Positions 43,325-56,800 are shown, counted from the first letter of the stretch. The stretch: DNA of 64,000 nt from an uncultured Candidatus Saccharibacteria bacterium (GCA_964646765.1 CAZYIA010000002.1:99467-163466), one strand, 5' to 3'. Translations and numbers: made by a program. Notes: a model not told the origin generated them from the letters alone.

Positions 43325-43921
43325 ATGGCTCGTATGAATCCTAAAACCTATGTATTTTTCGGTAATGTTGGTGCCGGAAAGGGAACCCAGATTGAACGCC
43401 TCCAGAAATACCTTAAGGAAAAAACTGGCCAAGATACAGCATACGCGTATCCAGGCGGAGAGTTTCGGAAACTCATTGGTGGAACAGGTTATACCTCGTC
43501 GTTGGTAAAAGATATTTTGAGCGCTGGGAAATTAGTACCGATGTTCCTGGTTTCGTGGGTTATTGGCAATGTTCTAGTTGAAAAACTTACCAGCCCTGAC
43601 ATGCATGTAATTTTTGACGGTTTCCCACGATCACTCGATCAGGTAATTGCTTTTGAATCGACGCTCGATTTGTATAAGCGTACAAATGTTGAACTTGTCT
43701 ATATCGAAGTGCCGAAAGAGGAAGTGATTAAACGCATGAAGCTACGCGGTCGTTTTGATGACACCGATGAAGGTATTGCTCAGCGTTTTTCGGAGTATGA
43801 AAACAATGTACTTCCTGCATTAAATCTTTTGAAAGAAAAGGGATACCCAGTACATACGATTCATGGAGCTCAGAGTATTGAAGAAGTATTTGCTGATCTC
43901 GTTAAAGCGCTCAATGTGTAA
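43325..43921 (+). CDS. adk: Adenylate kinase
   Basis: MARMNPKTYVFFGNVGAGKGTQ carries the canonical GxxGxGKGTQ P-loop. The start was moved from the listed TTG at 43247 to the ATG after the terminator. Canonical position after secY. Confidence 0.8.
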   Translation: MARMNPKTYVFFGNVGAGKGTQIERLQKYLKEKTGQDTAYAYPGGEFRKLIGGTGYTSSLVKDILSAGKLVPMFLVSWVIGNVLVEKLTSPDMHVIFDGFPRSLDQVIAFESTLDLYKRTNVELVYIEVPKEEVIKRMKLRGRFDDTDEGIAQRFSEYENNVLPALNLLKEKGYPVHTIHGAQSIEEVFADLVKALNV

Positions 43922-43923
43922 GT

Positions 43924-44604
43924 ATGAATAATCGCACCATCATCTCTCTCGGCGGTTCACTCGTAGTACCAAACGGTATCGATACCGAATTTTTGTCTAC
44001 GTTTGTTTCGCTTATAAAAAAAGAAGCAGAGAATGGTAAAGAATTTTCGATTGTGGTTGGTGGTGGCAAAGTGGCGCGTGATTACCGCGACGCACTTACT
44101 GCTCTTGGAGTTTCAGATAACGATATCCTTGATTGGCAGGGGATTTACGCCACACGATTGAATGCCGAGCTCGTTCGCCTCGCATTTGGTGAAACTGCTG
44201 AACCAGAAATTTTTCTTGAACCAGCGCAAGCTAGTTTTAAAACTAAGCGTATTCTCATTGGCGGCGGCTGGAAGCCAGGTCACTCAAGTGATGGTGCTGC
44301 TGTTGGCCTTGCAGAAGCACTTAAAGCGGGAACACTCATTAATCTTTCAAATATCGACTACGTCTACACTGATGACCCTCGCAAAAATCCTGAAGCCACA
44401 CCAATCGAAAAAATTAGTTGGGCAGAGTTTCGAAAGTTACTACCAACAGAGTGGAATCCTGGTGTGAATGCACCATTTGATCCAGTTGCCGCACAGATGG
44501 CCGAAAAAATTGGTCTTACTGTTGTGGTGATGAATGGCAAAAATTTGAATAATCTTAAAGCGTACCTTTCTGGCGAGCAGTTTATTGGTACGGTCATTTC
44601 TTAG
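43924..44604 (+). CDS. pyrH: Uridylate (UMP) kinase, short archaeal/CPR-type amino-acid-kinase fold
   Basis: IISLGGSLVVPNG...IVVGGGKVARDY...ILIGGGWKPGHSSDGAAV is the amino-acid-kinase family pattern. The length is about 225 aa. Confidence 0.65.
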   Translation: MNNRTIISLGGSLVVPNGIDTEFLSTFVSLIKKEAENGKEFSIVVGGGKVARDYRDALTALGVSDNDILDWQGIYATRLNAELVRLAFGETAEPEIFLEPAQASFKTKRILIGGGWKPGHSSDGAAVGLAEALKAGTLINLSNIDYVYTDDPRKNPEATPIEKISWAEFRKLLPTEWNPGVNAPFDPVAAQMAEKIGLTVVVMNGKNLNNLKAYLSGEQFIGTVIS

Positions 44605-45397: not shown

Positions 45398-48136
45398 ATG
45401 GAAAGTTTCCCGCAAGCGTCCAAATTTAAAACGGCTGAAGAAGAGCTCGCTTTTTTGCGTGCTCATATTGCTGAACGCGAACAAAAATCTGCTGAGATGG
45501 GCACAGGCGGTGGCAGTGAAAAAGCAGCGGAAGCCACACTTGAAGCATACAAGCGTGCTGACGCTGCAGAAGTGCTTCATGAAGCTGCGAAATTGCCGGA
45601 GCATCAGGTTGAACAATTAGTTCTTAATTTAAAACCTGAAACACACGATCGCCAGATGGAAGAGCTTCTCGGGATTCTTCTTGAGAATGGTATTAAGAAC
45701 GCCCTTGATGTAGTTGAGGCTATGCAGAACCCGCACTTAACCGATGATTTTCATCGTTTTCTAGTGCAGTACCTTGTAAGTACCAACGGTATTCCAGGAC
45801 TAAAAGAATCGCATCCACTTTGGAAAGGAGTGAATATGAAGCTTTTTGAAATTACCCTTCCTGAACAAGGAAAAGATGAAGCAAAGGGCTACAAAGAATT
45901 TATTGCCGCTATGGAGCAATTTTACGCTGGCATGCTCTCCGCTGGCGGAACTGACAATCCAAACCGTAAATACTACACCCTTGAAATCGCGGTTAATAAT
46001 AAGTCACCGCAAATCATGTTCTATGCTGCGGTGCCGAATGAAAAAGTAGATCTCTTTGAAAAACAGGTTCTTGGTTTCTACGAAGATGCAAAAGTAAAAG
46101 AAATTTCTGACGACTACAATATTTTTACTGAAGGTGGTGAAGCCGCTGGTTCATATGCCAAGCTTGGGGAAGTAGAAGTATTTCCACTGAAAATGCATGA
46201 TGAACTCGAGCACGACCCGATGAAGGCTATCATCAATGCCTTTTCAAAATTGAAGGATGAAGGTGAAGGTGCTGCTATTCAGTTTATGGTAGTTCCTGCG
46301 GGGGAACGACTAGTAAAGCAATTTTCTAATGTCCTCTGGCGAGTGAAAGAGGAAAAACTTCGAGCTCGAGAAGCTCTTAAGCTTTCAAACTCAATTGGCC
46401 GGGAAGTATTTCACCTGGCCAAACAGTTTGTAAAACCAACTTCCAAAGAGCGTCTTGAACAAAAAGGCCGCGCAAATGAAAAAGATATTGAAAATATCAC
46501 TAATAAGTTAAAAAGCACTGTTGTTGATGTTGCTGTTCGAGTAGTTGCTTCAGCTGCTACTCGTGAACGAGCGAAAGACATTTTGCGTGAAATTGAATCA
46601 GCATTCTATCAATTCTCAAATCCAACTGCGAACCATATTGAATGGGAACGTGTTGAAGGGCGTCGGGCAAGCGAACTCTTCCAAGAATTTTCATATCGTA
46701 TGTTCAATGAGGAAGAGCGCATGTCGCTTAATCTTCGCGAACTTGCCTCACTTTTTCATTTCCCAATTGGTATTTCTTCTTCACCTGAACTCAAGCAAGC
46801 TAAGGCTGCAACTGCTCCAGTGCCACTGGAAATGAAGGCTGACGCCGGCGGTATTTTCTTAGGTACCAATGAGCATCGTGGTGGATCGAAGAAAGTATTT
46901 ATGGGCAAAGAAGATCGCCGTCGTCACTTCTATGCTATTGGTCAAACCGGTACTGGTAAGACAACCATTTTGAAGCACATGATCATTCAAGATATTCAGA
47001 ATGGTGACGGAGTGTGTTTCATCGATCCGCATGGTTCTGATCTCCAGGACATTATTGCCAATATTCCAAAAGAGCGTATCGACGATGTTATTTACTTTGA
47101 TCCGGCGTACATTGCTCGGCCAATGGGGCTAAACATGTTGGAATACGATCCACGATACCCAGAACAAAAAACCTTCGTGGTGAACGAGCTTTTGGCTATT
47201 TTTAATAAGCTCTTCGATATGAAAACGGCCGGTGGCCCAGCGTTTGAACAGTACTTCCGTAACTCGTCGCTTTTGGTTATGGAAGATCCAGCATCTGGTT
47301 CAACGCTCCTGGAAATCGGTCGCGTGCTCGCGGATAAAGAATTCCGCGATCTCAAACTTTCTCGTTGTAAAAACCCAATCATCAAACAATTTTGGGAAAA
47401 TGCTGAAAAAACATCGGGCGAACAATCATTGGCAAACTTCGTACCATACGTTACCAACAAGTTCGATGTGTTCGTTTCAAACGACATCATGCGTCCGGTT
47501 ATTGCTCAGGAAAAGTCCGTATTCAATTTCCGTGAGATTATGGATAATCGCAAGATCCTTCTCGTGAATCTTTCGAAAGGCCGTTTGGGTGATATTAACT
47601 CAAACCTTATTGGTCTCATTTTGGTTGGAAAGCTTACGATGGCGGCGCTTTCTCGTGTCGATATTTTAGGCAAACAAGAAGTGCACGATTTTTACCTCTA
47701 CATCGACGAATTTCAGAACGTCACAACCGACTCCATCGCAACAATCCTTTCCGAAGCCCGCAAATACCGCCTGTGTTTGAATATCGCCCATCAATATATC
47801 GAACAGCTTGATGAGAAGATCAAAAATGCCGTCTTTGGAAACGTGGGATCGATGGCCATCCACCGTGTTTCGGTGGAGAATGCGGAGGTGTTCGCTAAAC
47901 AGCTTGAACCGACATTCACTGCAGAAGATATCATTAAACTCGAGAACCTTAATTGTTACATAAAGATGCTGGTGAACGGCATGCCGGTAAAACCATTCAA
48001 CTCGAAAACACCGTTTCCGCCGAAGGGTAATCCAGAGCTTGCTGAAAAGATTAAAGAGCTTTCGTACCTCAAATTCGGGCGAGATCGGGAAGAAGTGGAA
48101 AGTGAAATCATGGCCCGCTACGTTCAGCAGTTCTAA
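45398..48136 (+). CDS. Large soluble P-loop ATPase of the VirD4/TraG/TrwB coupling-protein superfamily (ATPase domain in the C-terminal half; about 450-aa N-terminal domain of unknown function, no transmembrane segments)
   Basis: Walker A is HFYAIGQTGTGKTT, followed by CFIDPHGSD. Walker B is LYIDEFQN. The region SEARKYRLCLNIAHQYIEQL resembles the TraG-D_C motif. Confidence 0.6.
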   Translation: MESFPQASKFKTAEEELAFLRAHIAEREQKSAEMGTGGGSEKAAEATLEAYKRADAAEVLHEAAKLPEHQVEQLVLNLKPETHDRQMEELLGILLENGIKNALDVVEAMQNPHLTDDFHRFLVQYLVSTNGIPGLKESHPLWKGVNMKLFEITLPEQGKDEAKGYKEFIAAMEQFYAGMLSAGGTDNPNRKYYTLEIAVNNKSPQIMFYAAVPNEKVDLFEKQVLGFYEDAKVKEISDDYNIFTEGGEAAGSYAKLGEVEVFPLKMHDELEHDPMKAIINAFSKLKDEGEGAAIQFMVVPAGERLVKQFSNVLWRVKEEKLRAREALKLSNSIGREVFHLAKQFVKPTSKERLEQKGRANEKDIENITNKLKSTVVDVAVRVVASAATRERAKDILREIESAFYQFSNPTANHIEWERVEGRRASELFQEFSYRMFNEEERMSLNLRELASLFHFPIGISSSPELKQAKAATAPVPLEMKADAGGIFLGTNEHRGGSKKVFMGKEDRRRHFYAIGQTGTGKTTILKHMIIQDIQNGDGVCFIDPHGSDLQDIIANIPKERIDDVIYFDPAYIARPMGLNMLEYDPRYPEQKTFVVNELLAIFNKLFDMKTAGGPAFEQYFRNSSLLVMEDPASGSTLLEIGRVLADKEFRDLKLSRCKNPIIKQFWENAEKTSGEQSLANFVPYVTNKFDVFVSNDIMRPVIAQEKSVFNFREIMDNRKILLVNLSKGRLGDINSNLIGLILVGKLTMAALSRVDILGKQEVHDFYLYIDEFQNVTTDSIATILSEARKYRLCLNIAHQYIEQLDEKIKNAVFGNVGSMAIHRVSVENAEVFAKQLEPTFTAEDIIKLENLNCYIKMLVNGMPVKPFNSKTPFPPKGNPELAEKIKELSYLKFGRDREEVESEIMARYVQQF

Positions 48137-48183: not shown

Positions 48184-48762
48184 ATGACTATCTTACCGTT
48201 GCCTCTCATCCTCGGTTCCTCTTCGGAGTTTCGGGCGCTTGAACTTCGAAATGCCGGGTACGATTTTACTGTGCGCACTGCTGATATCGACGAGAAAAAA
48301 AATCGGCATACTGATTTGCGAAAATTACCCCTTTTTATTGCTGAGGCAAAGGCTGAAGCTCTTCTCCCGCAGATCCAAGAACCGTCAATTCTACTCACGG
48401 CTGATGTGGTCGTTATCGCCAATGGCGAGCTCCGTGAAAAACCTATCGATGAAACGCAAGCGCGCACATGGTTCCACTCATATAGTAGCGGTGTGCCAGC
48501 AGTCATTTATACTGGCCTTGTCGTAGTGAACACTAAAACCGGAAAACGCGCCGAAGGTATTGATGAGTGTGTCGTGCATTGGAATCATATTCCTGAAAAT
48601 GCAGTAGAGAAAATTATTGCCGATGGTACGATTTTCAAAACCGCTGGCGGATTCACAAATGAAATTGCTCTTGAATTTGGACGGCAACCACTTCCGTCAG
48701 GCGATCGCCGTCGCGGCATCCCGATCTATCTTTTTGAAGAATTAGTGCAGAAAGTCTTGTAG
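48184..48762 (+). CDS. maf: Maf-family nucleoside triphosphate pyrophosphatase
   Basis: LILGSSSEFRALEL matches the Maf N-terminal signature (LILAS.SPRR..LL). The length is about 190 aa. Confidence 0.7.
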   Translation: MTILPLPLILGSSSEFRALELRNAGYDFTVRTADIDEKKNRHTDLRKLPLFIAEAKAEALLPQIQEPSILLTADVVVIANGELREKPIDETQARTWFHSYSSGVPAVIYTGLVVVNTKTGKRAEGIDECVVHWNHIPENAVEKIIADGTIFKTAGGFTNEIALEFGRQPLPSGDRRRGIPIYLFEELVQKVL

Positions 48763-48764
48763 CT

Positions 48765-49349
48765 ATGCATGAAGAAATTGAAATAAAGTTTTTGGAGGTA
48801 GATATTCCAACACTTGAAGAAAAATTTCTTTCCTATGGTGCTACCCGGGTGGGAGAGACTCTTTCACGTATCACTAATTTTGATTTTCCCGACTACCGCT
48901 TAAAAAGCGATCATGCGTGGGTACGGCTTCGAACAGAGTTTGGAAAGACAACTCTTACCTATAAGCAGCGAATTGGTGTAGTTTCTAGCGATACATCACT
49001 GCGTGACGAAGGAATGCGCGAAATTGAAATCACTGTTTCTGATTTTGAGACAATGCGCAAATTACTTCACGCTATTGGCATGATTGAGAAATTTTCCCAG
49101 GAACGGAAAAGAATTCATTTTGAAAAAGACGACCTGTCTTTTGACATTGACACGTGGCCTCTCATACCGCCGTACTTGGAAATTGAAGGAAACAGCTGGG
49201 AGAATGTCGAAAAAGCGGCTTCTGATCTCGGCTTTGATTACGATAGCCATCTTCGCTGTTCGGCAGGTAATATCCTTACCAAATACGGATATCCTGACCA
49301 TGATTATTCCATTTTTACCTTCAGTGAACAGATAAAAAAGAATTTGTAA
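48765..49349 (+). CDS. CYTH-domain (triphosphate tunnel metalloenzyme, CyaB/ThTPase-like) protein 1
   Basis: EIEIKFL is the N-terminal CYTH ExExK motif. Alternating acidic beta-strand residues (RLR, ExE) and YLEIEG are present. Confidence 0.65.
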   Translation: MHEEIEIKFLEVDIPTLEEKFLSYGATRVGETLSRITNFDFPDYRLKSDHAWVRLRTEFGKTTLTYKQRIGVVSSDTSLRDEGMREIEITVSDFETMRKLLHAIGMIEKFSQERKRIHFEKDDLSFDIDTWPLIPPYLEIEGNSWENVEKAASDLGFDYDSHLRCSAGNILTKYGYPDHDYSIFTFSEQIKKNL

Positions 49350-49422
49350 AACCACCAAATTTTTGCTAGTATCTGGCTGTATTTTAGTAGTCCTATAGAG
49401 CGAGAAATCGCATTTTTTATTT

Positions 49423-50007
49423 ATGGCAGTACACCCGAAAGAGGAGCGCACATACGTGATGATCAAACCGGATGGCGTTCGCAAAGGCCTTATTGGAGAG
49501 GTCATCAAGCGTTTCGAACAGCGCGATCTTAAAATTGTCGCTCTTGAGATGTTTACCCCGACTCGCGACCAGGTTCACAACCATTATCCGCAGGATGAAA
49601 AGTGGATTCGTCGCCTCGGTGAAAAAACCGCTGCTACTTATGAAAAGTACGGCTATGACTTGAACGAACTCGGTACATCCGATCTTCTTGAGATTGGTGG
49701 CATGGTTCGCGAATGGCTCCTTGATTTCATGACCAGCGCTCCGATGGTTCGCATGGTGGTGCAGGGACTCCACGCTGTAGACGTTGTCCGAAAAATTGCA
49801 GGCCCAACGATGCCGTATCTCGCTGAAATGGGAACGATCCGCGGAGATTACTCAATTGACTCTCCAGCGCTTGCAAACAAAGAAAAGCGCGCAGTTGCAA
49901 ACATCATTCACGCTTCAGAAACTGCTGAAGAAGCAGCACATGAAATCGAATACTGGTTCGGCAAAAGCCCGATTCACCCGTACAAGCGTTTCGGTGTAGA
50001 CGAATAA
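49423..50007 (+). CDS. ndk: Nucleoside diphosphate kinase (long form, 194 aa)
   Basis: RTYVMIKPDGVRKGLIGEVIKRFEQRDLKIVALEM... NIIHASETAEEAAHEIEYWF carries the NxxHGSD-like active-site His region. Confidence 0.8.
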   Translation: MAVHPKEERTYVMIKPDGVRKGLIGEVIKRFEQRDLKIVALEMFTPTRDQVHNHYPQDEKWIRRLGEKTAATYEKYGYDLNELGTSDLLEIGGMVREWLLDFMTSAPMVRMVVQGLHAVDVVRKIAGPTMPYLAEMGTIRGDYSIDSPALANKEKRAVANIIHASETAEEAAHEIEYWFGKSPIHPYKRFGVDE

Positions 50008-50019
50008 AAAGAAAAGTCA

Positions 50020-50128
50020 CAAACTGCTTACTAAGGAAAACGGAATATTTTTCTGCGGAAAAATTTCCTCCGACTCGCACCCAGTGCTCCGTCGAGTTTC
50101 CTTAGTAAGCAGTTTCTTTTTTTGAGAG
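50020..50128 (+). terminator. Long-stem hairpin (about 19 bp, about 55-nt loop) plus T-run after ndk
   Basis: caaactgcttactaaggaaa … tttccttagtaagcagttt is followed by cttttttttg. Confidence 0.45.
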
Positions 50129-50129
50129 G

Positions 50130-50813
50130 TTGTTACATAACCCAACTAGCAGTATGCTGATTACTATCATGCGGCCTATTTTAGAAATCTACAAACAATA
50201 CAATATTCCACCGAAGCTTGAGGAGCACATGCTTACAGTTGCCGGAGTCGCTCTTTGGATCGGTGAACACATCGAAGTGCCGCTTGATACTGACCGGGTA
50301 GTAACCGCGGCGCTTCTTCACGACATGGGAAATCTGGCGAAGTTCAAATTTGATTCTGATCTCTACCCGATATCTGACGAAGAGCGCGAGTACTGGAGGC
50401 GGGCGCAGTTGGAATTTTTTCACAAATATGGTCGTGACGAATACGAAGCAACCCTCCATATCGTCAGAGAACTCGGGATGCCCGATACGGTAACGTCACT
50501 TCTCGGTAGCGCCGGATTTAAAAGCGCATGTCTTGTATTAGAGGGAGCTAATTGGGAATACAAAGTTCTCGATTATTCTGATATGCGCGTCGGCCCGCAT
50601 GGAATTGTTTCACTTGATGAACGCCTGCTTGATCTTAAAAAGCGTTATGGTGAAAAAGTAGTTGTTGAGACGAAGGAAGAAGCAGAAAAACAATCCGAAT
50701 GTCTTCGCATGCTTGAGAAACAACTGTTCGAAAAGATTTCCCAAGATCCAGCCGCTATTTCTTCGGAAACAATCTTCTCGTATCGCGAGCGTGTACGCGC
50801 ACGGAATATCTAA
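50130..50813 (+). CDS. HD-domain metal-dependent phosphohydrolase
   Basis: The H…HD motif is TAALLHDMGN. The protein is helical and about 225 aa long. Confidence 0.6.
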   Translation: MLHNPTSSMLITIMRPILEIYKQYNIPPKLEEHMLTVAGVALWIGEHIEVPLDTDRVVTAALLHDMGNLAKFKFDSDLYPISDEEREYWRRAQLEFFHKYGRDEYEATLHIVRELGMPDTVTSLLGSAGFKSACLVLEGANWEYKVLDYSDMRVGPHGIVSLDERLLDLKKRYGEKVVVETKEEAEKQSECLRMLEKQLFEKISQDPAAISSETIFSYRERVRARNI

Positions 50814-50814
50814 T

Positions 50815-51351
50815 ATGGAAATTGAAACTAAAGTTCTTGAGATCGATCGGGTTTTGGTTGCTCAAAAGTTACGAGCGCTCGGAGCAAACGAAGTCCAAAA
50901 CGTGCGTCTTATCGTTGATTGGTATTCGCCGGCAGACATTTTGGGGGATACTCATCCGTGGTATTTGCGTGTGCGAAGCTTTGGAGAAGAGAAAGCAGAG
51001 ATTTCCTGGAAGTCTTTGCCGAAAATAATAGGGAATACGCGTCATTCAGAGGAAATAACCGTTCCGGTAAGTGATTTTGAGACAGCAAAAAGTATTTTAG
51101 ATGCTCTCGGGTTTAAAAACTACGCTCACCAGGAAAAAGACCGGCTCTCGTTTGTCTATAAAGCTTGGAATTTTGATATTGATCAGTATCCAGACATGCC
51201 GTGCTACTTAGAAATTGAAGGAAACTCGTATGAACACGTACAAGAAGCAATTTTGTTACTTAATTTAGAAAACCACGAAAGTATTTCTGAAGGAGAACGC
51301 CTTCTCATTGAAGAGAAATACAAACTAAACTGGAGTGACATGCGATTTTAG
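50815..51351 (+). CDS. CYTH-domain protein 2 (paralog of 48765..49349)
   Basis: MEIETKVLEID carries the ExExK motif. The shared C-terminal box YLEIEGNSYEHVQEA matches YLEIEGNSWENVEKA in the paralog. The start was moved to the Met after the HD-gene stop. Confidence 0.6.
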   Translation: MEIETKVLEIDRVLVAQKLRALGANEVQNVRLIVDWYSPADILGDTHPWYLRVRSFGEEKAEISWKSLPKIIGNTRHSEEITVPVSDFETAKSILDALGFKNYAHQEKDRLSFVYKAWNFDIDQYPDMPCYLEIEGNSYEHVQEAILLLNLENHESISEGERLLIEEKYKLNWSDMRF

Positions 51352-51617
51352 TTTTGTCTAATTTGCTACCATGCATTTTTTATTGCAAATCTATTCTTTC
51401 CGCTTGCAGATTATGTATCGAAGCATACAATAAATACAGGATTATTGAGGAGTATCACTTAGAACATAAAGTATCCGGGATCCTTGATTATTTTGTGCCG
51501 TGGCACAGAATCTCTGGAACCCACTTGGCTTCACGCTAAGGTGATATCTGCCCGATAGTCCTAACAAGCAACTCTCCGTTTGGAGGGTTTTTTGTTTGTT
51601 CAGGCTTTAGGTATACT

Positions 51618-52055
51618 TTGCATATGTATCCGATTACTTCAGTAGCGCAGAAACGCACTTTTCGACAAGCGGCGGCGGTCATTGCGGTCATTTGCGTCCT
51701 TAATCTCCTGGCAACCCTCTTCTATTGGTACTCTACAATCTGGTGGTTTGATATTTTGATGCATTTCCTGGGTGGATTTTTTATAGGATTGCTTGCGTAC
51801 TGGATCAGCACCTCTTTTATTCCCGCTCGATTTCTACCGACCACTATCATGGGGTGGATTTCTGTACTGATTCTTTCGGTATGTATTATCGGCTTTCTTT
51901 GGGAAGCATATGAACTCGTGGTTGATCTTTGTACCGGAGCCCAAGGATACGGATATCTTGATGGAATTTCTGATATGTTTAACGATCTTTCCGGAGGCTT
52001 TTTTAGTGTCATCGCAATCTTCCTTTTCCCTCAAAGAGATTCAACAGTAAATTAG
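51618..52055 (+). CDS. Hypothetical small integral membrane protein (about four transmembrane helices)
   Basis: Hydrophobic helices VIAVICVLNLLATLFYWY, FLGGFFIGLLAYWI and ISVLILSVCIIGFLW are present. It is preceded by a terminator-like hairpin. Confidence 0.4.
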   Translation: MHMYPITSVAQKRTFRQAAAVIAVICVLNLLATLFYWYSTIWWFDILMHFLGGFFIGLLAYWISTSFIPARFLPTTIMGWISVLILSVCIIGFLWEAYELVVDLCTGAQGYGYLDGISDMFNDLSGGFFSVIAIFLFPQRDSTVN

Positions 52056-52087: not shown

Positions 52088-54724
52088 ATGTTTGACCAAG
52101 TATGGTTATTTCTAAAGCTCCGTATTTTTTCCGAGAAGGTTCTCATCGGAGCTTTTGTATTTATTTCTCTCTATACAGGCGCCTTATACGCATTTGCGGT
52201 TACGTATGTAAACCCGGGAGATGTTCTTGATCCTTCAGGATTGCCTGGGAGTTACACAGTTCGAATATTTCCCAATCAAGCCGGCCATGCTGGAGAGTAC
52301 CTCACTACCGATGGCTCAGGAAATCTAAGCTGGGATTCAGTCTCTGGTTCCGGTAGTCCTGCGGGGAGTGATGGAGAAGTGCAGTTTAATAATGGAGGCT
52401 CTTTTGGAGCTTCGTCTCATTTTTTCTGGGATAACAGCACTAATCGTTTGGGAATAAAGACAAATACTCCGGAAGCGAGTCTGCATCTGCTAGCTTCGCA
52501 AAATATTATTCCAGGAACCCCCGGCACTATCGGTTCAACTTCCTATACTCCCACTGGTCCAGGAGAGCTTGATGACGCGACATTTGGCGGAGATTACTCT
52601 GGAGACAGCGATTGTACAATTGCTGCAGGCATCGCAACGACAGCCCCAGGAAATGGCCATACCAATGATGAATTTATCTGGGGGTATGTAAGCGGTTCTT
52701 GCAGTGGGGGGTCAGGCACTCCGACTGAAATCACCCCAGGAGCTCCTCAGGCTCTTGAGAATGGCATTACGATTACTTTTGCATCAGGAACCGGTCATAC
52801 ACCGTTAGGTGAAGATTTTAGTTCAATTTGGACAGCGGCGGTTACCGCAGGTACTCCAGATACTACGAGCGCTGGAGATGATCCGTTTTTGATCACGAAT
52901 AGTGATGATGCCACTGTATTTAAGGTGGCAAACGACGGCAGAATTTCGGTAGGAGGTAGCATCGGTTCGTCTACCGTATTAATTCACGCTCTTGAAGGCT
53001 ACCGGGCGCTGACGATTCGTAACTTTGACGACAGCAGCCTTCTTTTTTCCATTGATGATTTAGGGGATGCCGATTTGTTTGGTGATTTAAGCGTTGGAGG
53101 TAATTCCTTGGCTGTAAACGGAGTTGATTATACGTGGCCTAGTTCCCAAGCTGGTGGTTCCGGGTATGTTCTTACAAACGATGGTTCGGGTGGGTTATCT
53201 TGGACAGTGCCAGATGGTGGAGGTATTACTGTTGACGCAACAAGTTATAATATCTTTTCCGATAATATAAATGCTGGTACTTCACTTACTAGCGGTACAA
53301 CAAATACTTTTTTTGGTCGGCATGCAGGATCTATTAATACCGAGGGTTCAAGTAATATTTTCATTGGACCATATTCTGGATCCTCAAATACGACAGGCAA
53401 CAACAATGTGTTTTTAGGTTCAAATGCTGGTTTTACTAGCATGATGGGAGACGATAATATTTTTATCGGGACTAATGCTGGGTATCAGGCAAATGCCGCT
53501 CAGTATAATGTTTTCTTAGGTGCAGGTGCGGGCTACTCAAATCTTTCAGGAAATTTAAATGTTGCTATTGGGTATAATGCAGGATCTGTTGCTTCTAATT
53601 ATCAAAATACCTTTATTGGCGCTTATGCGGACGCCACAATTAATACAGTCACTGAATCTATAGCACTTGGCTCTTATTCTAAAGTTAGCAATTCAAATAC
53701 ATTTGTCGCAGGTTCACAAAACGCTCCAATAACAGATGTATATTTTGGTGGAGGAGAGCATCTCGATTGGATGTACGCACCATTCGGTTATACAATTCAC
53801 GGCACCGATGCTAATGGTAATAATTTAAAAGGCGGAGACATTACTCTTATGTCAGGAGCGGGAAGCGGAAATGCTGATGGAGGAGATATTCGCATCGGGG
53901 TCGCTCCGGGCGGTTCTTGCGGCACTCCATCATCTGGCAGTACAAACGGCACGCTGTGTCGTGGGATTTTCGTTTCAGGCAATTACGGAGAAGTAAGTTT
54001 CGGATCATATACCCAATCTCCGGGAACGTTTTACACATTCCCATATAATGACGGCTCGAGCGGTGATGTTCTCGTAACCGACGGTGCCGGTGTTATAACT
54101 TGGGAAGATCCAAGCCTGCTTCCATCTGATATCTCTCTTAAAACAAACATAAACCCGATTTCCTATGGACTCGAAACTCTAGAGAATCTTCGCCCCGTTT
54201 CTTATACCTTGATTGCCTCAGGACGTCCGCAGGTTGGTTTTATCGCCCAGGAGGTTGAAACAGTTGTGCCTGAATTGGTCGGGGTAATCTCGGGAGATAA
54301 AAAAGGAATTCAATACGGCCAGCTCTCAGCGGTGATTGTAAAAGCGATTCAGGAGCTCGACCTTAAGGTACAAAACCTTGAATTGCTTACCGGAGAGGCA
54401 ACTTCAATTGCCGGTCAGTTTACAGAAACGATTCTCCGTGTAAAAAGCATCGTCTTTGGATCGTCTGAAGACCCAACAGGATTTACCATGTATGATACCG
54501 TCACTAAAGAACCGTATTGCGTAACACTTACTAGCGGAGATTTCGTTAAAACCCCGGGTGTTTGCGGTGAAGACAGTAATTTAGGATCTTCTGGAAGTGG
54601 AGACGGCGATGATATTCAAACAGAGGAAACCGTTACTCCGGATGAGCAAGAAGAAGGTGGAAGCGGAGAAGAAATTACTACGGAAAATCCTTCTCCTCAA
54701 GCGGAGCCTGCTCCTATAGAGTAA
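52088..54724 (+). CDS. Tail-fiber-like surface protein: N-terminal transmembrane anchor and family box shared with 16951 and 18256, Gly/Ser-rich hinge, beta-helix-like N.F.G..AG repeats, C-terminal phage intramolecular-chaperone (peptidase S74-like) domain, acidic tail
   Basis: The N-terminus is KVLIGAFVFISLYTGALYAFAVTYVNPGDVLDPSGLPGSYTV...GSGNLSWD. Repeats read NIFIGPYSGSSNTTGNNNVFLGSNAGFTS / NIFIGTNAGYQANAAQYNVFLGAGAGYS. The C-terminal chaperone region is SDISLKTNINPISYGLETLENLRPVSYTL...QVGFIAQEVETVVPELV. Confidence 0.6.
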   Translation: MFDQVWLFLKLRIFSEKVLIGAFVFISLYTGALYAFAVTYVNPGDVLDPSGLPGSYTVRIFPNQAGHAGEYLTTDGSGNLSWDSVSGSGSPAGSDGEVQFNNGGSFGASSHFFWDNSTNRLGIKTNTPEASLHLLASQNIIPGTPGTIGSTSYTPTGPGELDDATFGGDYSGDSDCTIAAGIATTAPGNGHTNDEFIWGYVSGSCSGGSGTPTEITPGAPQALENGITITFASGTGHTPLGEDFSSIWTAAVTAGTPDTTSAGDDPFLITNSDDATVFKVANDGRISVGGSIGSSTVLIHALEGYRALTIRNFDDSSLLFSIDDLGDADLFGDLSVGGNSLAVNGVDYTWPSSQAGGSGYVLTNDGSGGLSWTVPDGGGITVDATSYNIFSDNINAGTSLTSGTTNTFFGRHAGSINTEGSSNIFIGPYSGSSNTTGNNNVFLGSNAGFTSMMGDDNIFIGTNAGYQANAAQYNVFLGAGAGYSNLSGNLNVAIGYNAGSVASNYQNTFIGAYADATINTVTESIALGSYSKVSNSNTFVAGSQNAPITDVYFGGGEHLDWMYAPFGYTIHGTDANGNNLKGGDITLMSGAGSGNADGGDIRIGVAPGGSCGTPSSGSTNGTLCRGIFVSGNYGEVSFGSYTQSPGTFYTFPYNDGSSGDVLVTDGAGVITWEDPSLLPSDISLKTNINPISYGLETLENLRPVSYTLIASGRPQVGFIAQEVETVVPELVGVISGDKKGIQYGQLSAVIVKAIQELDLKVQNLELLTGEATSIAGQFTETILRVKSIVFGSSEDPTGFTMYDTVTKEPYCVTLTSGDFVKTPGVCGEDSNLGSSGSGDGDDIQTEETVTPDEQEEGGSGEEITTENPSPQAEPAPIE

Positions 54725-54778: not shown

Positions 54779-56167
54779 ATGCAAGCTTCGGGAGAGAAGA
54801 GTCTCTCTATTACATTTTGTTCTGGCGCCGGTACGGTTACCGGGGCTAATTTTTTAGTCGAAGCAAAAAATCCGGACGGCACGAGTACAAAGTTTCTCGT
54901 TGACTGTGGTCTTATTCAAAATACCAGTATTGCTGACCCAGTGAATTGGCAGCCGTGGCCTTATAACGCTTCCGAAATTGAAGCACTGATTATTACACAC
55001 TCACATATTGATCATATTGGCCGCATTCCTAAACTTATTAAAGATGGTTTTCGTGGCCGAATTCTTTCAACGGTGCCAACAAAGGAGTTGGTCAAACCAA
55101 TGCTTGAAGATACCGCAGCGATTTTGGGTCATGAAAAGGAGCTCAAGCTCAACGAAATTTATAATTCCGAAACTATTAACCAGGCTTTAAAGCTTTGGGA
55201 AGGAATCCCATATCATCAGGAATTTCAAATTGGGGAAGTGCGTGGTCGCTTCTTAGATGCTGGCCATATTTTAGGTTCAGCTATGGCATCGCTTCGCTTT
55301 GGTGAAAAAACCACTGTCTTTACTGGTGATCTTGGTAACTCACCATCACCAATTTTGAAGGATACTGAGCCGTTAGGAACCGTTGATTATCTCGTCATGG
55401 AAAGTGTGTATGGTGATCGTAACCATGAAGCGCGTGACGAACGCAAGCGTCGTCTTGAGGGAGTCATTGAGGATAACTATAAGCGTCGTGGCACACTCGT
55501 GATTCCAACATTTTCTCTTGAACGCAGCCAAGAACTGCTCTATGAAATTGGTACGCTCGTTGAAGAAAAACGCATTCCAGAAATGCCAGTATACTTCGAT
55601 TCACCACTTGGTATTAAACTTACCAGTGTCTATCGTTCGTTTACTAATTACTTAAATGAAGAAGCTCAAAACTGGTTGAAACATGATGACGATCTTTTCT
55701 CATTTCCAGGGCTCAAAGTCACTCCGGAAACTGACGACTCAAAAGCCATCGTGCATACCTCTGACCCAAAAATTATTATTGCTGGTAGTGGTATGAGTAA
55801 CGGCGGCCGTATTACGCATCACGAGCACAATTACTTACCAAATCCAAACAACACCTTATTACTTACTGGGTATCAATCAATGGGAACTCTTGGCCGAGCG
55901 ATTGAAGACGGAGCCAAAGTAGTGCGCATTCATGGAGATGAAGTTCCTGTAAAAGCTCACATAGAAAAAATTAGTGGCTACTCAGGTCATAAAGATCGTG
56001 ATCATCTGGTGGACTTTGTAGGAGCAGTGAGCGATCAGGTGCAACGTGTCTTTGTGGTGATGGGAGAACCACATTCATCCCTTTTTCTTACTCAACGACT
56101 TCGTGATTTCTTGGGTGTGCAAGCAGAAGCACCAGATGCTGGTACCAGTGTAACCCTTCAGTGTTAA
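54779..56167 (+). CDS. Metallo-beta-lactamase / beta-CASP family ribonuclease (RNA-metabolising MBL)
   Basis: The MBL motif is ITHSHIDHIGRIP, with a downstream beta-CASP region and a C-terminal RMMBL-like histidine (ISGYSGHKDRDHL). Confidence 0.6.
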   Translation: MQASGEKSLSITFCSGAGTVTGANFLVEAKNPDGTSTKFLVDCGLIQNTSIADPVNWQPWPYNASEIEALIITHSHIDHIGRIPKLIKDGFRGRILSTVPTKELVKPMLEDTAAILGHEKELKLNEIYNSETINQALKLWEGIPYHQEFQIGEVRGRFLDAGHILGSAMASLRFGEKTTVFTGDLGNSPSPILKDTEPLGTVDYLVMESVYGDRNHEARDERKRRLEGVIEDNYKRRGTLVIPTFSLERSQELLYEIGTLVEEKRIPEMPVYFDSPLGIKLTSVYRSFTNYLNEEAQNWLKHDDDLFSFPGLKVTPETDDSKAIVHTSDPKIIIAGSGMSNGGRITHHEHNYLPNPNNTLLLTGYQSMGTLGRAIEDGAKVVRIHGDEVPVKAHIEKISGYSGHKDRDHLVDFVGAVSDQVQRVFVVMGEPHSSLFLTQRLRDFLGVQAEAPDAGTSVTLQC

Positions 56168-56170
56168 TGT

Positions 56171-56800
56171 ATGGCAACCAATCCAACTACACTTCTTTGT
56201 TATAACGGTCCAATTGGTAACGGTGATAAACATAATCACCTCAAACGTAAAATTGGAATTGCTGGTGCTTCTGAAACAGTACAGTGGGGCGGTACCGTAC
56301 TCGATACCGCAAAAGAAGTTGGGAAAGAAGTTGTTAAACAAGGAGGAATTTTGTTAACAGGAGCAGAAAGTGGTTTTGCGCTGTGGGCTTCCATGGGAGC
56401 GAAAGAAGAACGGGGAATTGTGATTGGTATTTCTCCTGCAGTTTCTGAAGAAGAACATGTAAATGTGTATCGGTATCCGCTTGATTACACTGACCTTATT
56501 GTCTATACCGGTTTTGGTCTTGCTGGTCGCGATCTTCTTTTTACCCGTAGTTGCGATGCTGTCGTTATTGGTGCTGGCCGTACTGGCACTATTCATGAAT
56601 TTACAGTTGCGTACGAAGACGAAAAACCGATCGGAGTACTCGAAGGCCCTGGAAGTATTGCCGAAATTGCTCGCGATATTATTACTCGTGGCGGGCATCC
56701 AGCTGACAATGTTATTTTCTCTGCTTCTCCAAAAGAACTTATTACGAAACTTATGAAAATGCTCGATGAGCGAAAAGTAACAGAAGCCCATCTTCGTTAA
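56171..56800 (+). CDS. TIGR00725/LOG-like Rossmann-fold nucleotide-binding protein
   Basis: The protein has KIGIAGASE...GGILLTGAESGFALWASMGAKE...CDAVVIGAGRTGTIHEF, which is the pattern of the LOG/SLOG superfamily. Confidence 0.5.
   Translation: MATNPTTLLCYNGPIGNGDKHNHLKRKIGIAGASETVQWGGTVLDTAKEVGKEVVKQGGILLTGAESGFALWASMGAKEERGIVIGISPAVSEEEHVNVYRYPLDYTDLIVYTGFGLAGRDLLFTRSCDAVVIGAGRTGTIHEFTVAYEDEKPIGVLEGPGSIAEIARDIITRGGHPADNVIFSASPKELITKLMKMLDERKVTEAHLR

Follow-up and report, generated by a model that had tools for sequence, protein, structure and literature searches.

Five consecutive genes at positions 48184-51351 (forward strand) of a 64,000-nucleotide (nt) stretch of DNA from an uncultured Candidatus Saccharibacteria bacterium, here called the window, encode what look like one enzyme that makes nucleoside triphosphates (NTPs) and four that degrade such compounds. 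The genome is a member of the Patescibacteria (candidate phyla radiation, CPR), and on balance we lean towards reading the cluster as a lineage-specific neighbourhood for NTP synthesis and house-cleaning. It is assembled from already known enzyme kinds. A sequence-only reading of this DNA had named the five same-strand open reading frames (ORFs) as Maf, CYTH, nucleoside diphosphate kinase (Ndk), HD and CYTH; their positions and all five identities proved correct, each family being assigned by Pfam above its gathering score:

48184-48762, +, Maf (Pfam Maf, 89.1 bits against a cut-off of 27, E = 3.6e-25)
48765-49349, +, CYTH1, a triphosphate-tunnel metalloenzyme (TTM) with a WxRxR motif (Pfam CYTH, 41.2 bits against 23.2)
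49423-50007, +, Ndk, long (Pyrobaculum-type) form (Pfam NDK, 127.6 bits against 27, E = 3.8e-37, in two stretches)
50154-50813, +, HD phosphohydrolase (Pfam HD, 31.5 bits against 22)
50815-51351, +, CYTH2, a CYTH paralogue with a YxRxR motif (Pfam CYTH, 34.9 bits against 23.2)

The Ndk match falls into two stretches because of an insertion. The start of HD follows the public gene call (50154) rather than a TTG at 50130, and the true start of CYTH2 is the ATG at 50815, a 229-amino-acid (aa) ORF from 50662 being an upstream extension that overlaps HD. The public gene calls place the cluster at the tail of a ribosomal-protein/SecY/Adk/PyrH/Map superoperon, between a DUF8128/TrwB-like ATPase and an aCPSF1-like beta-CASP ribonuclease (RNase); they run S8-L6-L18-S5-L15-SecY-Adk-AA_kinase-Map-[DUF8128/TrwB-like ATPase] and then Maf-CYTH-Ndk-HD-CYTH-DUF2238-Peptidase_S74 protein-betaCASP-LDcluster4-P-type ATPase. 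Two kinases stand 4 kb upstream of the cluster:

43325-43921, +, adenylate kinase (Adk) in the terminal part of the ribosomal-protein/SecY operon (labelled Pfam ADK by the public gene call; NCBIfam adk matches all under their cut-offs)
43924-44604, +, archaeal-type UMP kinase PyrH, 'AA_kinase' in the public call (TIGR02076 pyrH_arch, 196.3 bits against 158)

Since the 'AA_kinase' is an archaeal-type UMP kinase, three nucleotide kinases lie within 7 kb. Every homologue with a source name comes from a Patescibacteria-group bacterium, and Logan assemblies of two runs (SRR11845633 and SRR11845634) carry the exact window protein.

In the favoured reading, Ndk would convert (deoxy)nucleoside diphosphates, supplied by the upstream Adk and UMP kinase, to (deoxy)NTPs, while the four hydrolases around it would clear nucleoside or organic polyphosphates that are non-canonical or in excess. 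Maf, which is YceF-like, would split an NTP into a nucleoside monophosphate and pyrophosphate, its likely targets being modified purine NTPs such as 7-methyl-GTP (m7GTP). The two CYTH enzymes would hydrolyse the terminal phosphoanhydride of a triphosphate, with an aromatic residue apparently placed, judging from alignment, to stack a base or thiazole ring, and the mononuclear HD phosphohydrolase would handle a further phosphorylated substrate. Such clean-up may be useful to a salvager of degraded nucleic acids, whose modified bases enter the pool; salvage is reported to admit modified nucleosides into NTP pools (PMC12887539). The house-cleaning or salvage role was the better-supported half of the earlier proposal, whose other half was signalling: it fits the intact catalytic residues, the Adk and PyrH genes upstream and the other nucleotide hydrolases found at the same place in relatives. 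It would also give a concrete context, NTP-pool hygiene in obligate salvagers, for the CYTH family and for an unnamed HD family of about 740 cluster representatives.

Catalytic residues of the five enzymes

As judged from alignments, the catalytic residues of Maf, CYTH1, Ndk, HD and CYTH2 are all intact. For CYTH1, aligned with 33 homologues (down to 44% identity), E4, E6, K8, W52, R54, R56, K67, E86, E88, D129, E139 and E141 are invariant or nearly so, among them the N-terminal ExExK (E4-I-E6-I-K8). The basic RxR (R54/R56) and the acidic ExE of strand beta-8 (E139/E141) are invariant in CYTH1 and present in all three classes of CYTH paralogue, the third being a SaTTM-like protein of related genomes. 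CYTH1 reads MHEEIEIK ... W-V-R-L-R ... YLEIEG and CYTH2 reads MEIETK ... Y-L-R-V-R ... YLEIEG, with a signature EEK / Y / RR / K / E / D / EE, and the eight-stranded tunnel fold of the CYTH superfamily was found. The catalytic sets of both TTMs are thus complete at the level of sequence; loss of the acidic residues, which the earlier reading had named as grounds for rejecting its proposal, is seen in neither protein. That reading had also called the two genes paralogues with a shared YLEIEGNS box, and the box is indeed common to both proteins, which are 35% identical (E = 4e-24).

The diagnostic residues place the CYTH proteins outside the CyaB-like cyclases. A true class IV adenylate cyclase needs HFxxxxExExK, substitutes a small residue for the first Arg of xRxR, and carries ExA instead of ExE (Vogt et al., PMC8233210). 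No HF motif precedes ExExK in any of the three paralogue classes, the first Glu being preceded by three residues in CYTH1 and one in CYTH2; both Arg and both Glu are kept in CYTH1, CYTH2 and the third paralogue. CYTH1 (36.1 bits) and CYTH2 (42.7 bits) also fall below the 57.95-bit cut-off of the NCBIfam cyaB model (TIGR00318). With all three cyclase signatures missing, the second-messenger role that had been suggested for CYTH is not supported, and we rejected it on the three motif tests together with the cyaB cut-off. Public annotations name the homologues 'class IV adenylate cyclase', and these names are therefore misleading: the proteins share with CyaB of Aeromonas and Yersinia a superfamily and a pipeline name, but differ in lacking HF, in keeping both Arg, in having ExE and in scoring under the cut-off. 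Our assignment corrects a widespread mis-annotation that is a potential source of false claims of cAMP signalling in CPR.

CYTH1 and CYTH2 are instead expected to be triphosphatases. The best sequence and fold matches are archaeal TTMs (SaTTM/Saci_0718, PH1012 and Pfu-838710; cluster 3 of the sequence similarity network (SSN) in PMC8233210), and SaTTM is the closest solved relative (4.4e-11 with the family profile). The likeness covers a single domain of about 180-195 aa with ExExK, RxR and ExE, from which a triphosphatase mechanism would be expected; SaTTM is described by its authors as a triphosphatase that makes no cyclic nucleotide. Three features set the window's proteins apart from the archaeal TTMs: the Ala of SaTTM is replaced by W in CYTH1 and by Y or F in CYTH2; CYTH1 adds a conserved C-terminal extension of about 50 residues; and two or three paralogues stand side by side, next to ndk.

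The aromatic position also links CYTH1 to the mammalian 25-kDa thiamine triphosphatase (ThTPase), which has W-x-R-x-R at the aligned site. In the profile alignment W52 falls on the human ThTPase Trp ('kaWvRlRdeg' against 'dhWLRRREDS') and on the Ala of SaTTM. Only the N-terminus resembles ThTPase, and that weakly (E = 0.015); CYTH1 belongs to a bacterial and archaeal family of CPR and DPANN genomes. A W/YxRxR motif is said to mark ThTPases (SSN cluster 8, PMC8233210), and the same source still calls the physiological role of prokaryotic CYTH/TTM proteins elusive. Among 63 homologues from other CPR/DPANN genomes (30-47% identity) W occupies the position in 50, and 56 are aromatic there, so that an aromatic residue 52 is a trait of the CPR/DPANN CYTH family. 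A large family in these genomes therefore carries a motif thought to mark the animal enzymes, and very small genomes maintain two or three copies of it. One Saccharimonadales metagenome-assembled genome has three W-type CYTH genes in tandem (L052, 8968-10816); multiplication of CYTH is therefore not confined to the window's lineage.

The closest solved relatives of Maf are Tb-Maf1 (2amh) and YceF (4jhc). Aligned to YceF, its S-R-E-K-D-K signature is complete (S14, R17, E37, the Lys of AEAKAE, the Asp of TADVV and the Lys of EKP); this signature, which includes the catalytic Asp, defines Maf, and Maf enzymes prefer modified nucleotides (PMC3899018). At the three subfamily positions Maf has F-V-E where YceF has W-Q-E, two of three agreeing in type: position 1 is aromatic and position 3 Glu, as in the YceF/Tb-Maf1 subfamily, whereas position 2 is Val, not Gln, and the score stays under the TIGR00172 cut-off. 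By these residues F-V-E suggests the m7GTP-preferring branch.

Ndk had been described as a long form, and it aligns from end to end, across the insertion as well, with its Pyrobaculum aerophilum counterpart (1xqi; E = 1.6e-49). The two share an insertion of about 40 residues and the catalytic His motif NxxHAS ('NIIHASE' against 'NLVHASD'). Unlike the Pyrobaculum protein, the window's Ndk has a bacterial host, and sister genomes hold a short Ndk (about 30-35% identical) in the same position. At E <= 1e-10 there are 4209 homologues; among the matches listed, 120 of 120 have 74% identity or more, and Patescibacteria account for the few whose source is named.

HD belongs to an unnamed family of 738 representatives at E <= 1e-30. 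Across 38 homologues H20, H51-D52, N55, K58, D138, R140, R152 and R159 are invariant, which gives the H..HD..D ligands of a single-metal site plus several basic residues; the second-metal His/Asp ligands of the HD-GYP, PgpH and YqeK types are not conserved in the family. Its profile has weak matches to YfbR, HDDC2 and oxetanocin-like (OxsA) nucleotidases (E = 4e-4 to 0.04), 5'-nucleotidases of similar size with the same single-metal site. It differs from 1xx7/HDDC2 in that the Glu of HDxxE is the invariant Asn55 (HDMGN), and from YfbR in that true YfbR-like HD_3 proteins occur separately at the same locus in relatives. The HD_3 model reaches 22.7 bits (cut-off 22.5) over residues 31-67 only, which does not make HD a YfbR-like protein, and placement in any of these characterised subfamilies was rejected, the profile matches being weak and the assignments unconvincing. 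Longer family members are uninformative fusions, probably gene calls merged with signal peptidase II or DUF5915. We also rejected a defence system for want of support: PADLOC models give no match for Maf, CYTH1, Ndk or CYTH2, and for HD a weak generic Cas3-HD match (E = 7e-4).

Conservation of the gene order

Scanning a single genome for each species, we obtained 80 loci encoding relatives of CYTH1. The block PyrH-Map-ATPase-[slot]-betaCASP is kept in 16 of them (ATPase about 59%, Map about 62% and beta-CASP about 57% identical), and across these 16 genomes the slot holds:

CYTH1, 16/16
CYTH1 directly adjoining Ndk, 13/16
CYTH1 adjoining a 360-aa Adk-like kinase in place of Ndk, 2/16
two inserted genes between CYTH1 and Ndk, 1/16
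the window's HD family, 8/16
CYTH2, 6/16
the third, SaTTM-like CYTH paralogue, 5/16
YfbR-like HD_3, 3/16
His_Phos_1, 2/16
Nudix, 1/16
cytidylyltransferase-like protein, 1/16
IS200-like transposase, 4/16
DUF2238, 10/16
Maf, 0/16

The core, CYTH1 adjoining Ndk or an Adk-like kinase and often CYTH2 abutting an HD gene, is found in about 20 related genomes (the 16 species representatives and four further loci). One close relative, and only one, has the complete five-gene order; this closest relative (CYTH1 81%, HD 65% identical) repeats the exact series ATPase-Maf-CYTH-Ndk-HD-CYTH-DUF2238-S74-betaCASP. Retention of the full order where HD is 65% identical, and of the core in 16 genomes, indicates that these same-strand genes are not grouped simply by chance. 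Loss of linkage in related genomes, which the earlier reading had also named as grounds for rejecting its proposal, is seen only in part: the linkage is conserved within one Paceibacteria-like lineage, with Maf only in the closest relative, and absent from 64 more distant genomes. The duplication of CYTH, thought unusual, is real, but two or three CYTH paralogues are normal in this lineage's slot. A literature search found no described CYTH-Ndk-HD cluster in CPR.

The composition of the slot is what favours a functional neighbourhood. It repeatedly recruits nucleotide enzymes (the third CYTH paralogue, YfbR-like HD_3, His_Phos_1, Nudix, cytidylyltransferase-like, Maf), so that in one lineage CYTH is consistently accompanied by nucleotide kinases and further nucleotide hydrolases. 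Of the nine genomes that have CYTH2, eight place it directly next to an HD-type gene; its gaps to the window's HD family are 1-12 bp in either gene order, and in two CYTH2 genomes a YfbR-like HD_3 stands upstream, replacing that family. An invariant kinase, hydrolases of different folds and similar chemistry that swap with one another, and the tight CYTH2-HD pairing together lead us to favour nucleotide-pool upkeep. In the two loci with an Adk-like kinase (360 aa; L018, 10657-11733, and L024, 10707-11789), this protein takes Ndk's position between CYTH1 and HD and bears long extensions at both termini and a CxxC...CxxxC segment resembling a Zn lid. At L011 (1-2846) 23S-5S rRNA genes lie upstream instead of the ATPase, and CYTH1-Ndk-HD are still together; the 23S gene there matches a group I intron model below the gathering score (47.2 and 28.7 bits against 50). 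Outside the lineage we found Gmk-Adk-Map-Ndk-HIT-betaCASP (L092), Ndk-Nudix (L091), Map-ATPase-Ndk-HD-betaCASP (L090) and Nudix-HD (L087).

Several observations weigh against nucleotide-pool upkeep as the reason for the linkage. Maf is in the slot of two genomes only, the window and its closest relative. In the 64 more remote CPR/DPANN genomes that encode a CYTH1 homologue, no neighbour is conserved: none recurs in more than six loci, the commonest (six loci each) being an apparent ribonucleotide reductase and an ABC-type ATPase, identified by reading the sequences, and Nudix-like ORFs are few. Guilt by association outside the lineage accordingly fails. Two HD homologues outside the lineage are unlinked to any cluster gene, and a fold search with HD indicated no nucleotide-specific subfamily. 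All syntenic genomes belong to one lineage, in which the flanks are also conserved, so the linkage could in part be inherited gene order and not selection.

The five genes are also probably not one transcript, as the sequence between them suggests. The operon signs are mixed: spacers of 2 bp (Maf-CYTH1) and 1 bp (HD-CYTH2), yet gaps of 73 bp (CYTH1-Ndk) and 146 bp (Ndk-HD), with 266 bp after CYTH2. The 146-bp gap separates Ndk from HD-CYTH2 by a hairpin with a T-run:

50009-50123, +, long-stem hairpin with T-run between Ndk and HD (perfect 19-bp inverted repeat)

The hairpin has a minimum free energy of -47.4 kcal/mol (z = -6.97); its inverted repeat is extended by A and T runs and encloses two small hairpins. 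It has no Rfam match and no second copy in the window or in relatives, and a repeat element or known RNA was rejected on these grounds. It is probably a strong, possibly bidirectional terminator, or an insulator. A further terminator follows the RNA downstream of CYTH2. The genes would be expressed as three or more units (Maf-CYTH1, Ndk and HD-CYTH2), putatively co-regulated.

The strongest alternative, less likely than nucleotide-pool upkeep though with an appreciable chance, is that these are unrelated housekeeping genes in a variable slot of a conserved post-ribosomal block, kept together by inherited order with no functional coupling. The Map, ATPase, beta-CASP and LOG-like flanks are conserved in the same genomes, the linkage is lost in the distant ones, terminator-like elements divide the cluster, and the slot also takes IS200-like transposases, a DUF559 gene and a tail-fibre-like gene. 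Inheritance alone accounts less well for the slot's content: by our own count about 63 of about 81 slot ORFs of at least 100 aa (18 loci) are nucleotide or polyphosphate enzymes, and the exchanges (Ndk for the Adk-like kinase, the HD family for YfbR-like HD_3) preserve similar chemistry. Other lineages put HIT or Nudix, rather than CYTH or HD, beside Ndk. The short CYTH2-HD gaps persist in both gene orders, and the cluster is intact despite the changed upstream flank in L011.

Alternative roles for the CYTH enzymes

Two readings tie the CYTH enzymes to RNA. In the broader one, which we consider improbable, the W/Y-type CYTHs are CPR/DPANN-wide triphosphatases for base-bearing triphosphates, including RNA 5'-triphosphate ends, and feed the beta-CASP RNase together with HD. 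Nudix and HIT proteins at the same position in sister lineages would then have a role comparable to HD's, and the block from Adk/PyrH to beta-CASP/LOG-like would be a recycling line from RNA decay to clean NTPs, which could be co-ordinated with a conserved unclassified RNA inside the block. The narrower one, slightly less probable again, is a module for RNA 5'-end decay in which the CYTHs strip the transcript's 5' triphosphate in the manner of Cet1 and so license the downstream RNase, HD (or Nudix or HIT in sister lineages) plays a related part, and Ndk and the upstream kinases recycle the nucleotides. Consistent with decay, the slot ends with the aCPSF1-like RNase in all syntenic loci as well as in L090 and L092, the L018 Nudix protein also matches the Nudt16-like decapping family, the L092 HIT protein matches DcpS_C, and aromatic residue 52 could stack a 5' nucleoside. 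However, the closest TTM relatives (SaTTM, PH1012, ThTPase) are small-molecule triphosphatases, not Cet1, the substrates of Maf and Ndk are free nucleotides, and the association with beta-CASP is not independent of shared ancestry.

We give a lower chance still to a clean-up of thiamine triphosphate (ThTP) or tripolyphosphate, with the W/Y-type CYTHs as prokaryotic ThTPases or tripolyphosphatases that remove by-products of promiscuous kinases. The alignment of W52 with the ThTPase Trp, the W/YxRxR motif said to define these enzymes (PMC8233210) and the adjoining nucleotide kinases point that way; the similarity limited to the N-terminus does not, and the aromatic residue could equally stack a nucleobase. 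Least probable is a second-messenger module, in which CYTH makes cAMP or another cyclic nucleotide and HD degrades it: the public homologue name and a third paralogue above the TIGR00318 cut-off in relatives speak for it, and against it stand the three cyclase signatures missing from all classes, the sub-threshold scores of CYTH1 and CYTH2, the reported lack of cyclic-nucleotide product in SaTTM, the four single-metal ligands of HD (unlike HD-GYP or PgpH), and the lack of any effector or receptor gene nearby or supporting PADLOC match.

A conserved RNA and the flanking genes

Along with the multi-copy W/Y-type TTM family, the most interesting element of the locus is an unclassified RNA in the 266-bp gap after CYTH2, with a promoter-like site upstream and an intrinsic terminator:

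51427-51597, +, conserved structured RNA of about 170 nt, unclassified (covariance model R1, 148 bits)

The model finds the RNA in 17 of 17 related loci that have the ATPase-to-beta-CASP block and available DNA (L007 11995-12199, L010 13021-13191, L026 14352-14520, L090 6716-6916 and 13 more), always between the nucleotide-enzyme genes and (DUF2238)-betaCASP, and it is present also in seven loci without DUF2238. Ten aligned copies share a closing helix of 22 bp, a conserved internal loop, a distal stem in two parts and, to the side, a small hairpin. In this alignment 92.8% of cells are paired, against at most 48% in controls with slid partners. Compensatory changes occur at 25 of 53 pairs, and none of 500 shuffles reaches the observed scores. 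No Rfam family matched the 206-nt stretch even at E <= 10, and a gathering-threshold scan of the whole 64-kb window found no RNA family, not even a tRNA. We therefore rejected a yjdF riboswitch, 6S, the signal recognition particle RNA and other Rfam families; the yjdF idea fails also because B. subtilis YjdF is presumably of a different protein family from DUF2238. The architecture of closing stem, bubble and distal stem recalls 6S, a resemblance only, and a closing helix of 22 bp speaks against a riboswitch of the classic kind. We treat the RNA as an adjacent feature, its membership in the enzyme set being putative.

The flanks are as the sequence-only reading had described them, a large TrwB/TraG-like ATPase upstream and a membrane protein and a tail-fibre-like protein downstream:

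45398-48136, +, DUF8128 and TrwB/TraG-like P-loop ATPase, 912 aa (TrwB_AAD_bind, 27 bits against 20.5)
51618-52055, +, DUF2238 membrane protein (PF09997 in the public gene call; cluster c2)
52088-54724, +, Peptidase_S74 protein, 878 aa, with an S74 intramolecular-chaperone (endosialidase chaperone) domain
54779-56167, +, aCPSF1-like beta-CASP ribonuclease (Pfam Beta-Casp, RMMBL and Lactamase_B)
56171-56800, +, LOG/'lysine-decarboxylase-like' family protein (PF18306 LDcluster4; TIGR00725, 79 bits, under the cut-off)

The ATPase has an N-terminal DUF8128 (from precomputed matches) and a C-terminal TrwB/TraG/HerA-like P-loop domain (TraG-D_C, 23.1 bits against 22), with a weak PADLOC match to mad8 (8.6e-12), and is conserved directly after Map in this lineage (about 59% identity). 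In relatives the start of CYTH1 lies 1-2 bp from the ATPase stop or overlaps it, and there the ATPase is translationally coupled to CYTH1; Maf intervenes between the two in the window and its closest relative.

The Peptidase_S74 protein is Gly/Ser/Thr-rich and inserted between DUF2238 and beta-CASP. It was seen only in the window and the closest relative, where it has 1433 aa, and looks like a lineage-specific tail-fibre-like surface protein. The beta-CASP gene lies downstream in every syntenic locus. It reaches 280 bits with TIGR03675, under the cut-off, and its top NCBIfam match is the type VII CRISPR Cas14 MBL/CASP model, far under the cut-off. The pair of beta-CASP and LOG/LDcluster4 genes is kept in most relatives, so genes for nucleic-acid and nucleotide turnover extend past the five first flagged.

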